IMG/VR virus record: IMGVR_UViG_3300010396_000003
Location: 64,001 to 128,000 of that record
Strand: one strand, 5' to 3'
Origin: a virus
Taxonomy: Duplodnaviria > Heunggongvirae > Uroviricota > Caudoviricetes
DNA length: 64,000 bases
Shown: piece after piece, positions 14,118 through 56,584 of the stretch
How positions within the stretch are numbered: the first letter of the stretch is position 1
How the letters are laid out: each line of letters opens with the position of its first letter
Program-made: the position numbers and the translations under genes
Notes under the pieces: generated by a model
What the model was told of the DNA's origin: nothing
Seen by the model: only the letters and a program-made list of their open reading frames with translations
Database searches by the model: none

Positions 14118-14191
14118 TGGTAGGCCCGGCAGGTGCTGCCCCTGCGTCCCCTGATTAAAAGTCAGGTAGTCTACTGTTGACTTACGGACCC
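14118..14191 (-). tRNA. tRNA-Lys(TTT) with non-canonical T loop
   Basis: GGGTCCG/CGGGCCT-ACCA; CCTGA-CTTTTAA-TCAGG; T arm GCAGG-GGCAGCA-CCTGC. Confidence 0.9.
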
Positions 14192-14193
14192 GA

Positions 14194-14409
14194 TCAATTA
14201 CCGCCGCACGCGATGCTGGCATTTGCCGTCATGCAAGCTTCACGTACCTTTCGAACGGCTGCGGTTTGATCGGCGCTTGGAAGAGTATTCGCGACAATAA
14301 CCGCAGCCAAATGTTTACCAGCCTCGCGGATCGCCTCGAACTTAGGAAGTTGGTCTGGCGTCGGTGCGTGGTAGGTAAACCAGTTGTCGATATTGACTTC
14401 AGTTATCAT
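14194..14409 (-). CDS. Acb2/Tad1-like helical hairpin protein (candidate signal sponge)
   Basis: 71 aa from ATG 14409 (AAAGGA RBS): IDNWFTYHAPTPDQLPKFEAIREAGKHLA...SADQTAAVRKVREACMTANASIA. Confidence 0.6.
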   Translation of the reverse strand: MITEVNIDNWFTYHAPTPDQLPKFEAIREAGKHLAAVIVANTLPSADQTAAVRKVREACMTANASIACGGN

Positions 14410-14431
14410 CACAATTCCTTTCAAAGTAAAC

Positions 14432-14564
14432 GAGGCGGCGTACATCCTCTTTACCGCCGCCCCCTCTGTTTAGATCTATTCCCGGAGGCAGCCGATACAC
14501 AGGAGACTAAGCCCGCATCGACTGCCTCGGTTCCGTGATCAGACGCCATACACGGCTGATCACG
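14432..14564 (-). ncRNA. Candidate structured RNA, three consecutive hairpins
   Basis: Stems 14534-14542/14556-14564 (9 bp), 14485-14496/14517-14528 (12 bp, one GU) and about 14432-14440/14455-14463. Confidence 0.45.
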
Positions 14565-15128: not shown

Positions 15129-15228
15129 TGGAGCGTCTGGCGAGATTTGAACTCGCATCAACCAGTTAGAACTGGCTGCTCTGTCGGTTTTAGAGACCGA
15201 TGCTTTCACCCGGTTAAGCTACAGACGC
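15129..15228 (-). tRNA. Amber suppressor tRNA(CTA) with long variable arm, 100 nt
   Basis: GCGTCTG/CAGACGC-TCCA; D stem GCTT/AAGC; TCGGT-CTCTAAA-ACCGA; 27-nt variable region with an 8-bp stem; GCGAG-TTCAAAT-CTCGC. Confidence 0.9.
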
Positions 15229-15237
15229 CTTGTTCTC

Positions 15238-15260
15238 TTAGGAACAATTTTTGTTCCTAA
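15238..15260. other. Perfect 10-bp inverted repeat inside the tRNA array
   Basis: TTAGGAACAA-TTT-TTGTTCCTAA. Confidence 0.8.
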
Positions 15261-15266
15261 AGAAAT

Positions 15267-15311
15267 TGGAGCGGGGTGTGGCTTTGAACCACGTCTTTCG
15301 ACGCACCCCGC
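15267..15311 (-). ncRNA. Mini-tRNA (45 nt), Gly-like acceptor, no D or anticodon arm
   Basis: GCGGGGT-G-CGTC-GAAA-GAC(G)-TGG-TTCAAAG-CCA-C-ACCCCGC-TCCA. Confidence 0.75.
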
Positions 15312-15312
15312 G

Positions 15313-15358
15313 TGGCAGGGGCTTCGGATTTGATCCACGCGCTTTCACGCGAGCCCCT
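15313..15358 (-). ncRNA. Mini-tRNA (46 nt), Trp-like acceptor, no D or anticodon arm
   Basis: AGGGGCT-C-GCGT-GAAA-GCGC-GT-GGA-TCAAA-TCC-GA-AGCCCCT-GCCA. Confidence 0.75.
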
Positions 15359-15359
15359 A

Positions 15360-15412
15360 TGGTGCCGGCGTCCCATTCAAGAGAGCGCGGCGCTAGCTTC
15401 CGCACCGCCGGC
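15360..15412 (-). ncRNA. Mini-tRNA (53 nt), D-armless, CTA centred in its single loop
   Basis: GCCGGCG-GTGCGG-AAGCTAGCG-CCGCGC-TCTC-TTGAAT-GGGA-CGCCGGC-ACCA. Confidence 0.7.
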
Positions 15413-15928
15413 ATTGGTGTGCGCGGTAGGAGTCGAACCTACCTCGATCAATTTAGAGTTGACCTGTCCAGCCGCTGGACCACGCGCACATAAACTGGCA
15501 CGCCCGGTCGGATTCTCACCGACAACTTCTCTGTTTAGATCAGAGCACTCTCGTAGTTGAGTTACGGGCGTATCTTTGTAAACTCGATAATTTGAGAGCA
15601 CCGATCGCGCAACTCCGCTAATCGGCGCCGTACAAATGGCTGTAAATCTTTCTGCTTCGGGAAAGTCTGGTTCAAACCAGCAATAATGTTGAATCTGAGA
15701 TACGGCGAGTTTGCCGGCAACACGTTTAAGTGCGGCCAGATCGGGCACACCAATCAGAACGTGGTTGTTCCAACACTCATTCTGTTGGACTGTATAAGGC
15801 TTATGCGTGAAGCGCATAGTCGCCTGTTCTACTGCATGATTGGATTGGATGATTTGATGCTGGATGGGAAGATCCATCCGAATGAAGGTATAAACGTAAG
15901 GTTCTTGAGAAATCTAGGTAAATGTCAT
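15377..15928 (-). CDS. Pth2-like peptidyl-tRNA hydrolase; in-frame TAG at codon 5; frame continues through the tRNA genes
   Basis: ATG15928 ACA TTT ACC TAG ATT TCT CAA GAA CCT TAC GTT TAT ACC TTC ATT CGG ATG15877 gives MTFT*ISQEPYVYTFIRMDLP..QSNHA..WFEPD..FTAICTAP; ORF track shows only 15377-15877. Confidence 0.75.
15415..15489 (-). tRNA. Amber suppressor tRNA(CTA), A73
   Basis: GTGCGCG/CGCGCAC-ACCA; D stem GTCC/GGAC; GTCAA-CTCTAAA-TTGAT; GTAGG-TTCGACT-CCTAC. Confidence 0.9.
15496..15571 (-). tRNA. Amber suppressor tRNA(CTA), A1-U72, G73, atypical T loop
   Basis: ACGCCCG/CGGGCGT-GCCA; D stem ACTC/GAGT; CTCTG-ATCTAAA-CAGAG; GTCGG-TGAGAAT-CCGAC. Confidence 0.85.
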
Positions 15929-15934
15929 GCCGCG

Positions 15935-15962
15935 AATGTATCACGGAACAAAGCCTTGTCAA
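15935..15962 (-). promoter_or_regulatory. Sigma70 promoter with extended -10; predicted start at the ATG (leaderless)
   Basis: TTGACA (15962-15957), 16 nt ending TGA, TACATT (15940-15935), 6 nt, ATG 15928. Confidence 0.7.
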
Positions 15963-55455: not shown

Positions 55456-55719
55456 ATGAAGATTGAATTATCTCGGGATAAAACCAGCATTATTCTAACC
55501 GGAATAGTTTCTATTCGGATCCCAGTTGAAGAATTAATACACGTTTTGCGTGAGTGTGATCCATTGCCTCCAAGGTTAAAACAGGTCCGGGATTTAGTGC
55601 GGCAACATAGGTGTGATAAAGAAATTGCTTCTGAATTGGGAATTTCAGTGCGTACCGTAAAATTACATGTATCACGATTAAAAGAAATTTGTGGTGAAAA
55701 CGACCGTTACCGACTATAA
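55456..55719 (+). CDS. LuxR-type HTH protein
   Basis: LPPRLKQVRDLV...DKEIASELGISVRTVKLHVSRL. Confidence 0.85.
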   Translation: MKIELSRDKTSIILTGIVSIRIPVEELIHVLRECDPLPPRLKQVRDLVRQHRCDKEIASELGISVRTVKLHVSRLKEICGENDRYRL

Positions 55720-55741
55720 TCACCATTCCAAAGGAGAGTTA

Positions 55742-56179
55742 ATGAAAACTTCCGGCGTAATTGCCATAACTGCTGTCTCAGTAATTATTCTAGCTTTTGC
55801 CGTTGTTCCGGGATTCAATTATGTCAAGACCAAGGTTCAGTCGCCGGCCGCCGCAAAGGATAGCTGCGTCGCCGGCAAAGACGAAATATGTCCCAATGCG
55901 GACTTTCTTGGTCAGATTGACCGTATTCAGGCCCTAAACGATGATATTGTGAAGCTCGCCGGTAATAACGATTACAAGCGGATTAATTCCAAAATCGCGG
56001 ATGATCAGGCGATGATCGAAGGAATACGCGACAACCTCTCAACGGCGATCCGGCAGCCAGGTAGTGGCGTTCCCTCGAATTATAAGTGGGATGGTCAGAA
56101 GAAGAAGTTTGTGCTCGATCCAAATCTGCCCGTTCCGAGTGCTCCGGCACCAACAGCCACCCCAACACAAAAGAAGTAG
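55742..56179 (+). CDS. Membrane-anchored periplasmic coiled-coil protein ending in TAG
   Basis: AAAGGAG RBS; N-terminal TM segment, helical middle, Pro-rich tail. Confidence 0.8.
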   Translation: MKTSGVIAITAVSVIILAFAVVPGFNYVKTKVQSPAAAKDSCVAGKDEICPNADFLGQIDRIQALNDDIVKLAGNNDYKRINSKIADDQAMIEGIRDNLSTAIRQPGSGVPSNYKWDGQKKKFVLDPNLPVPSAPAPTATPTQKK

Positions 56180-56212
56180 CGTTGGTTTGTTTTTCTTGGC
56201 ATACCTCTAGGT

Positions 56213-56584
56213 ATGCTGAATGCCCTTTCCAAACTTGGTGCACATAGCTGGCATCACGCCGAATTCTGGTTCTTTGTTGCCATCCTGCTATTTATTCTCT
56301 ATGTGCCACCAGCAGCAGCGCAGAAATTATCGGCTGTTCAGGACTTCGTTGAGGCACACTTCGGGGATAGTATCGGCCTTTATATTCTTCACCTTGGCAT
56401 TGGGTTGATTATTTTGGCGGGTGTGTTTCCAGAAATGACGCATGTCGACCAAATTGGTCAATCGCTCGTCTTGGCTGCAATGGGAGTACTTAAACTGACG
56501 CGGACAAACGGGAATGGAAACGGTCATGGACCTGAGTCGGTACCGGCGTCGAATCCTCCTCCTGCACCGGCGCAAACTCCATAA
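56213..56584 (+). CDS. Multi-pass membrane protein (holin-like topology)
   Basis: About three hydrophobic segments; no well-spaced RBS; in frame with the upstream gene. Confidence 0.6.
   Translation: MLNALSKLGAHSWHHAEFWFFVAILLFILYVPPAAAQKLSAVQDFVEAHFGDSIGLYILHLGIGLIILAGVFPEMTHVDQIGQSLVLAAMGVLKLTRTNGNGNGHGPESVPASNPPPAPAQTP

Follow-up and report, generated by a model that had tools for sequence, protein, structure and literature searches.

IMG/VR virus record IMGVR_UViG_3300010396_000003 is a complete phage genome of 152,425 bp with terminal repeats of 123 bp. The stretch analyzed here (the window; 64,000 nucleotides [nt]) covers bases 64001 to 128000 of that genome. Four DNA sequencing runs from soil metagenomes contain all or part of this DNA, two of them being its possible source; no RNA run containing it was listed. 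On its minus strand, at positions 15412 to 15267, we confirmed three tandem units of 45 to 53 nt that resemble the upper half of a tRNA and that we refer to as minis. They belong to a cassette whose order along the minus strand is a promoter-like site, a reading frame with the predicted fold of the PTH2 peptidyl-tRNA hydrolases, two tRNA genes with the anticodon CUA (designated c and b), mini-1, mini-2, mini-3, a 38-nt hairpin, and a third tRNA-CUA gene (a). The three minis are as follows.

15360-15412, minus strand: mini-1, 53 nt, type A2; 7-bp acceptor stem GCCGGCG/CGCCGGC, A73, CCA
15313-15358, minus strand: mini-2, 46 nt; acceptor stem AGGGGCU/AGCCCCU, G73, CCA; fold z = -2.6
15267-15311, minus strand: mini-3, 45 nt; acceptor stem GCGGGGU(G), U73, CCA; fold z = -2.9

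Structure of the three minis

Each acceptor stem is a perfect 7-bp helix free of G-U pairs, followed by a discriminator base (A, G, and U in minis 1, 2, and 3, respectively) and an encoded CCA. The minimum-free-energy folds of all three units consist exactly of this acceptor stem, one hairpin (H1), and a T-like hairpin. H1 has 6 bp and an apical G-CUAG-C in mini-1, where the hairpin loop of the minimum-free-energy fold is the 9-nt AAGCUAGCG; it has 5 bp in mini-2 and 4 bp in mini-3, both with a GAAA loop. Compared with a T arm of 5 bp and a 7-nt UUCRANN loop, the T-like hairpin of mini-3 carries a canonical-looking 7-nt loop, UUCAAAG, on 3 bp, that of mini-2 reads GG-AUCAAAU-CC, and that of mini-1 has the 6-nt loop UUGAAU on 4 bp. 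Single nucleotides separate the minis from one another, and 2 nt separate mini-1 from the CCA of the upstream tRNA-CUA. The 148-nt mini block as a whole folds with z = -3.1, and none of 200 shuffles folded equally well. A first-pass annotation, made from the sequence letters, had described three tandem CCA-ended mini-tRNAs with a 7-bp acceptor stem, a T-like arm, and one hairpin in place of the D and anticodon arms, closed by GAAA in two of them; the folds bear this description out, and the CTA that it had placed at the center of a 9-nt loop in the third element is the CUA found mid-loop in mini-1.

Mini-2 and mini-3 are paralogous, with a common interior and unlike acceptor stems. The acceptor of mini-3 repeats the first 5 pairs and the U73 of the phage's own tRNA-Gly(UCC), in agreement with the earlier suggestion that the GCGGGG.../U73 element is tRNA-Gly-like, while the A1-U72/G73 of mini-2 presumably resembles that of Escherichia coli tRNA-Trp. 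A common interior under unlike acceptors, one of them copying tRNA-Gly, looks like diversification of acceptor identity on a single scaffold.

Standard tRNA finders miss the minis, as had been expected of them: over positions 15267 to 15412, ARAGORN reported no tRNA and the Rfam tRNA model (RF00005) had no match even at E ≤ 10, and the Rfam search returned no match of any kind for the minis. A bare descriptor of 7 bp, one free nucleotide, and CCA is common (102 matches in the genome versus 69 in shuffles), and three abutting matches to it occurred in none of 60 dinucleotide shuffles. When the descriptor was made strict by asking for two inner hairpins, a folding energy of at most -0.40 kcal/mol per nt, and a free NCCA end, the 152-kb genome offered 1493 raw candidates, of which only the three minis passed. 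The main array of 34 tRNAs in the same genome, which is interspersed with open reading frames (ORFs), contains no mini.

Relatives of the cassette and types of minis

GenBank phages showed generic tRNA and SSB similarity only and yielded no relative. A single-protein locus search with the PTH2-fold gene likewise returned none, and a word-indexed protein search returned the window's own protein only. SSB relatives were tried as a route to the cassette and rejected, as they led to unrelated phages. Most portal-protein relatives in IMG/VR had no cassette within 10 kb; one locus had the same layout. A search with an alignment of the small gene 5' of the array brought up loci from soil-type samples exclusively, 4 of them viral and 30 metagenomic; loci were counted among the 25 distinct ones having enough downstream sequence.

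In 21 of these 25 loci, the conserved end of the protein domain (...NYRLW/Y) is followed within 1 to 10 nt by a head-to-tail, CCA-ended array composed of one to three tRNA-CUA genes and one or two minis (44 to 62 nt), spaced 1 to 3 nt apart. Two further complete relatives each hold a mini, which brings the total to 30 distinct minis. The window has three minis; L019, L020, L028, L037, and L040 have two. All minis found in relatives lie in the PTH2/tRNA-CUA cassette. A 28-nt degenerate pattern for A2 minis matched seven IMG/VR stretches, five of which are real minis, and these five were all inside such a cassette; in 185,579 bacterial and archaeal genomes, the same pattern gave one chance match and no real mini.

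We distinguished two types. Type A minis lie 3' of a tRNA and have an H1 of 5 to 8 bp, capped by R-CUAG-Y (A2 and A3) or GGCA (A1), and a T-like loop of UUGAGU or UUGAAU. Type B minis directly follow the gene, 1 to 10 nt past its conserved end, and their H1 loop is GCAA, GAAA, or UCAAAC. Mini-1 is a clear A2 member and minis 2 and 3 are short, GAAA-capped paralogous variants; the layout of an A2 mini followed by a GAAA-type mini is common to the window and L020. Discriminators across the parsed minis are A73 in 14, G73 in 8, U73 in 6, and C73 in none. In the window, the acceptor of each mini copies that of a neighboring suppressor; as a general rule, this was rejected, since it fails in L016, L019, and L032.

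Some relatives have odd units of 62 to 88 nt in tRNA or mini slots, with an acceptor stem and CCA around a non-cloverleaf interior (L015:3268-3355, L047:1331-1416, and L037:2844-2905). These may be tRNA-to-mini intermediates.

Evidence for a selected structure

MAFFT alignment misplaced the mini helices, and covariance-model alignment was used instead. Model R1, seeded with three minis, recovered 10 non-seed minis at E < 1 and no other match in 309 kb searched on both strands. In the R1 alignment, pairing is intact in 94.9% of cells and both sides have changed in 16 of 18 pairs, values reached by none of 500 shuffles; sliding the partners as a control lowered pairing to 42 to 50% (38 to 50% over both alignments). 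A second, independent seed set, made of type B minis, gave 96.9% pairing and compensatory changes at 16 of 18 pairs. Both pairing values are somewhat inflated, since the alignments were fitted to the model structure, and this must be counted against our interpretation; the slid controls and the lack of off-target matches argue that the covariation signal is real nonetheless.

All three helices covary. H1 is among them, 5 of its 7 pairs showing compensatory changes, and none of the 28 parsed minis lacks it. The compensatory changes span relatives whose partner protein is only 33 to 60% identical. The stack formed by the acceptor, the junction, and the T-like stem has 11 to 13 layers in 26 of the 28 parsed minis (mode, 12). 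The acceptor/T helix of a tRNA is just as long, and its length is measured by RNase P, the CCA-adding enzyme, and EF-Tu.

Mini-1 scored 73.6 bits with R1 (E 1.5e-14) and 57.7 bits with model R2 (E 1.6e-8). It is the sole R2 match in the whole genome, and R2 had a single match in each of four related records. Mini-3 was a borderline match to R2 (18.8 bits, E 0.76), and mini-2 was detected by neither R2 nor R3.

The PTH2-fold partner gene

The cassette opens with two features.

15935-15962, minus strand: promoter-like site TTGACA-16-TGnTACATT, 10/12 matches, extended -10; a consensus match only
15575-15928, minus strand: PTH2-fold gene; ATG at 15928, in-frame TAG at 15916-15914, conserved domain from 15913 to 15575

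Modeled without its N-terminal strand, the protein had no clear match in the PDB and the gene looked like an orphan. The complete model, built with that strand and a 76-sequence alignment, has a predicted local distance difference test score (pLDDT) of 92.6, and in Foldseek 15 of its 15 best PDB matches were Pth2 peptidyl-tRNA hydrolases (template modeling [TM] scores of 0.66 to 0.75, E from 2e-5). A sequence profile compared with the PDB also pointed to peptidyl-tRNA hydrolase (E 2e-4), and Pfam PTH2 (PF01981) gave weak matches to 9 of 27 members. As modeled, the partner protein has the PTH2 fold, and we regard it as a putative aminoacyl/peptidyl-tRNA hydrolase. The family alignment has nearly invariant columns R, D, Q, H, D, T, and P, and the family is large, with 1783 clusters at E ≤ 1e-3. 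Members of the PTH2 family act on the ester at the CCA end of tRNA.

Both ends of the gene are atypical. The promoter-like site ends 6 nt 5' of the ATG at 15928, and relatives have a -10-like hexamer about 6 nt ahead of their own ATG; this candidate promoter suggests that the cassette message is leaderless. In 27 of 27 loci, the opening consists of a short ATG-led peptide, a TAG, and an AT-N codon in frame with the domain, which starts right after the in-frame TAG and 5' of the first downstream ATG. The opening peptide is M-T in 20 of the 27 (ATG-ACA-TAG-AT(N)) and reads M-T-F-T-amber-I in the window. The amber codon falls at codon 3 to 6 of this apparently leaderless opening. No other ATG-NNN-TAG-AT openings above chance were found in the window. 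This arrangement could mean that the PTH2-fold gene is amber-gated by its own suppressors or, alternatively, that the opening is a two-codon minigene with reinitiation at AUN.

At its other end, the PTH2-fold frame lacks its own stop and stays open through two tRNAs to a TGA at 15379-15377, in the T-like loop of mini-1. An own stop is also missing in 24 of 26 loci, where the first stop comes 40 to 298 nt into the tRNA array. The idea of a fixed stop position was rejected, as the stop is a T-like UGA in 6 loci, an anticodon-loop UAA in 3, and elsewhere in the rest. A distant homolog, L045, which has no tRNA array, stops 4 nt past the domain. Cutting by RNase P would yield a non-stop message of the PTH2-fold gene.

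Suppressor tRNAs and hairpin of the cassette

The remaining features of the cassette are listed below.

15496-15571, minus strand: tRNA-CUA (c), A1-U72/G73; Rfam 48.7 bits; D loop without GG, T loop UGAGAAU
15415-15489, minus strand: tRNA-CUA (b), A73; found by ARAGORN; Rfam 50.1 bits; its CCA ends 2 nt ahead of mini-1
15229-15266, minus strand: A+U-rich perfect hairpin, a 38-nt spacer from mini-3 to tRNA-CUA (a); -13.1 kcal/mol, z = -4.8, 0/200 shuffles as stable
15129-15228, minus strand: tRNA-CUA (a), class II with a long variable arm, GCG.../U73; found by ARAGORN; Rfam 62.6 bits; last unit of the array

Three different tRNA-CUA genes thus fall within positions 15129 to 15571, in a genome for which ARAGORN reports 39 tRNA genes, every one on the minus strand. 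The tRNA-CUA (c) gene begins at the codon directly after the end of the PTH2 domain and lacks both G18G19 and the T-loop UUC, and tRNA-CUA (a) has a variable arm of 27 nt and a Gly-like GCG.../U73 acceptor. Recoding of TAG in this genome was ruled out: TAG is the stop of 35 of the 192 long ORFs, and the extensions beyond it are short. No phage gene for a CCA-adding enzyme was found. Since it has no U-tract, the A+U-rich hairpin differs from a typical terminator; it could serve as a site for a nuclease.

Proposed role of the minis

We tentatively favor the reading in which the minis are excised by RNase P and then serve as non-decoding mimics of the tRNA acceptor end, tied to the PTH2-type hydrolase. 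The cassette promoter would drive one precursor that contains the PTH2-type gene, the tRNA-CUA suppressors, and the minis. A 7- to 8-bp acceptor stacked on a T-like stem (11 to 13 layers), a discriminator, and a retained, encoded CCA suggest that RNase P and trimming would release the minis; judging from this anatomy, RNase P would cut each 5' end, the 1- to 3-nt trailers would be trimmed, and stable RNAs of 45 to 57 nt with a free tRNA 3' end would result. Each would present an acceptor arm without an anticodon and could act in trans as a ligand, competitor, or substrate for acceptor-end enzymes. The first candidate target would be the cassette's own PTH2-fold aminoacyl/peptidyl-tRNA hydrolase, with host enzymes or CCA-end-directed toxins as alternatives, and H1 with its subfamily tetraloops (CUAG, GGCA, or GNRA) might confer partner specificity or rigidity. 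We lean toward a role in trans because H1 is always kept and covaries, because the subfamily loops are conserved, because tandem minis differ in their acceptors, and because these genomes hold no minis elsewhere. Selection on H1 goes beyond what a pure RNase P signal would need, and several minis per locus fit the dosage or diversity of a trans-acting RNA.

This reading retains much of what the first-pass annotation had proposed, namely, decoys or substrates for enzymes that attack the tRNA 3' end, packed for release by RNase P and possibly connected to Pth. The idea of selected acceptor mimics survives, and so does the RNase P-type head-to-tail packing, whose 1- to 3-nt spacing is conserved among relatives. 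The link to Pth has turned out stronger than claimed, since the adjoining gene itself has the PTH2 fold and every family member found lies inside its cassette. A consistent acceptor identity across relatives did not hold up, and the GNAT, toxSAS/CapRel, and MenT-type enzymes that it had named as attackers, like the charging and aminoacyl-donor role that it had suggested, would be speculative additions.

Several observations weigh against the favored reading. Four of the 25 loci (L036, L041, L046, and L047) have the cassette without minis, which are therefore not indispensable to it. The slot right after the gene takes a full tRNA-CUA or a mini interchangeably, which is what a mere processing signal would predict. 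Acceptor and discriminator identities vary among relatives and do not consistently match the neighboring suppressors, so that no single aminoacyl-tRNA synthetase or toxin target is implied. In distant members of the gene family (L062, L068, and L045), the start and stop are ordinary and no units abut the gene.

The main alternative, which we take seriously, is that the minis are only processing punctuation: cis-acting marks, comparable to the t-elements of plant mitochondria, at which RNase P cuts free the PTH2 message and the neighboring tRNAs, the released minis being by-products. In a variant of this hypothesis, they are internally deleted tRNA genes that were kept since a broken acceptor/T helix would spoil the processing of their neighbors. 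Besides the interchangeable slot (a tRNA-CUA or a type B mini) and the four loci that manage without minis, it is favored by the fact that the conserved features (the 11- to 13-layer stack, NCCA, and the 1- to 3-nt spacing) are those that RNase P needs, by the stop-less gene in 24 of 26 loci, whose message must acquire its 3' end by processing or run-through, and by the precedent of the t-elements (PMC1920247), with which the minis share a tRNA-length acceptor/T minihelix at a transcript border. However, type A minis, mini-1 included, stand between units that RNase P would separate anyway, and three in a row would be redundant. Punctuation also does not account for an H1 that is always present and covarying, with conserved, subfamily-specific loops. 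The genome's large, ORF-interspersed tRNA array uses no minis, and relatives have one R2 match per whole genome.

A role in ribosome rescue strikes us as unlikely. Here, minis charged by host synthetases according to the identity of their acceptor stem would enter the empty A site of ribosomes stalled where stop-less messages end, the RNase P-cut mRNA of the cassette among them, and take over the nascent chain, upon which the PTH2-type enzyme would release the peptide and recycle the mini; lacking an anticodon, the minis would fall off, and the amber-gated, stop-less message of the enzyme would tune a phage-encoded system independent of transfer-messenger RNA (tmRNA). The attraction of this hypothesis is that it joins three conserved oddities, i.e., a PTH2-fold enzyme, a stop-less gene, and anticodon-less, CCA-ended RNAs of varied acceptor identity, and that the topology of acceptor, helix, and T arm resembles the tRNA-like domain of tmRNA. 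Aminoacyl minihelices are also accepted in vitro by EF-Tu and the 50S A site. The scheme is nevertheless purely inferential: no SmpB-like partner was identified, there is no G3:U70 or other uniform charging signal, the genome searches found no phage gene for EF-Tu or a release factor, and the need for suppressors is left unexplained.

It is very improbable that A2 minis such as mini-1 are D-arm-less amber suppressors that decode UAG through the CUA of their H1 loop. CUA is central in the H1 loop of eight A2-type minis (window, L020, L022, L024, L040, L050, L051, and L019b), and these minis sit among amber suppressors. However, the motif is R-CUAG-Y, in which the flanking R and Y covary (G-C, G.U, and A-U), making CUAG a closed tetraloop. 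Position 33 is G or A rather than U, position 37 is G rather than A, and positions 33 and 38 covary; the absence of U33 and A37 makes decoding by mini-1 unlikely. Homologous subfamilies carry GGCA or GNRA in place of CUAG (GAAA in minis 2 and 3), the arm of about 7 bp is too short for the canonical span from anticodon to CCA, and the phage encodes no EF-Tu of its own. Hardly credible at all is the view that the minis are decayed tRNA remnants or chance hairpins, even though they are located in a tRNA cluster and are rejected by standard finders. Remnants would not be expected to show compensatory changes in three helices among relatives with so divergent a partner protein, a three-sequence model that finds 10 more minis and nothing else, or an abutting triple never seen in shuffles. 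Covariation, recovery by models, and the tRNA-length stack together argue for excluding remnants, and the earlier expectation of a selected structure rather than decay is upheld across relatives by the compensatory pairs in both seed sets (16 of 18 in each).

Relation to known tRNA-like RNAs

Several known systems resemble the minis in part. Like them, the t-elements of plant mitochondria (Forner et al. 2007, PMC1920247) are non-decoding acceptor/T structures at the borders of coding RNAs, thought to guide RNase P and RNase Z; unlike them, t-elements are single, do not encode CCA, form no head-to-tail array with tRNAs, and are not bound to a single gene family, whereas the phage minis are tandem and have an extra conserved hairpin. 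Synthetic minihelices and microhelices made of the acceptor and T arm, which are minimal substrates for RNase P, the CCA-adding enzyme, several synthetases, and EF-Tu, share with the minis a 12-bp coaxial helix and NCCA. They are laboratory constructs, whereas the minis are natural genes with a third helix at the junction and, mostly, a 6-nt T-like loop (UU-N-A-N-U).

The tRNA-like domain of tmRNA, which acts at the empty A site, likewise combines an acceptor stem, an outgoing helix, a T arm, and CCA and lacks an anticodon, but no mini has G3:U70, a D-loop, or an attached message-like domain; ARAGORN found no tmRNA, and no SmpB-like partner was seen. The release proposed here for the minis has a parallel in mascRNA and menRNA (3' modules of MALAT1 and NEAT1, RF01684), small CCA-ended tRNA-like RNAs that are cut from a longer transcript by tRNA-processing enzymes. 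Those RNAs are eukaryotic and cloverleaf-like, with a remnant of the anticodon arm, and receive their CCA after cleavage, in contrast to the minis, which have no Rfam match. Arm-less mitochondrial tRNAs of nematodes and arachnids (PMC12221289) are, like the minis, natural RNAs of 42 to 55 nt with missing arms; they keep a true anticodon arm and use an adapted EF-Tu, whereas the minis mostly have tetraloops and the phage analyzed here has no EF-Tu of its own. In gut phages, theta (hepatitis delta virus-like) ribozymes (PMC10879173) are also small structured RNAs coupled to amber-suppressor tRNA genes, thought to aid maturation or regulation, but they are self-cleaving and of an unrelated fold, and the phages with minis are soil phages that are not TAG-recoded.

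In the full-text literature, we found no description of phage mini-tRNAs, minihelices, or tRNA decoys or of a Pth gene coupled to suppressor tRNAs, and all tRNA genes so far known from bacteria and phages are cloverleaves (PMC11551756). The minis apparently constitute an undescribed RNA family of soil phages, a variant of tRNA-like RNA elements. Naturally occurring genes for half-tRNAs that end in CCA and lack an anticodon would add a new class to the small RNAs of phages. Their cassette looks strikingly engineered, with a leaderless amber opening, a stop-less PTH2-type gene, and two or three amber suppressors in phages that are not recoded. Once worked out, the function of the minis would reveal the ways in which phages manipulate the tRNA acceptor end, be it in charging, hydrolysis, toxin attack, or ribosome rescue, and annotators would gain a model for elements missed by tRNA finders.

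Neighboring genes

On the minus strand 3' of tRNA-CUA (a) lie an SSB gene, tRNA-Trp, an ORF with an Acb2/Tad1 hairpin domain, and two tRNA-Lys genes. The 83-amino-acid ORF at 14194-14445 (minus strand), situated among tRNA genes, matches the Acb2/Tad1 hairpin domain (PF24729, E 1.3e-11), which makes it a candidate sponge for defense signaling nucleotides. An Acb2/Tad1-type ORF is also close to the related cassette L062. A tRNA-Lys(UUU) gene at 14121-14191 (minus strand) has an aberrant T arm (GGGGCAGCACC); it scores 49.8 bits with Rfam and is missed by ARAGORN. Elsewhere in the window, at 55691-56584 on the plus strand, a 162-amino-acid ORF ends in TAG, and its frame remains open for 134 codons more. 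Possibly, a late or structural protein is extended here by amber read-through, which the suppressors could serve.

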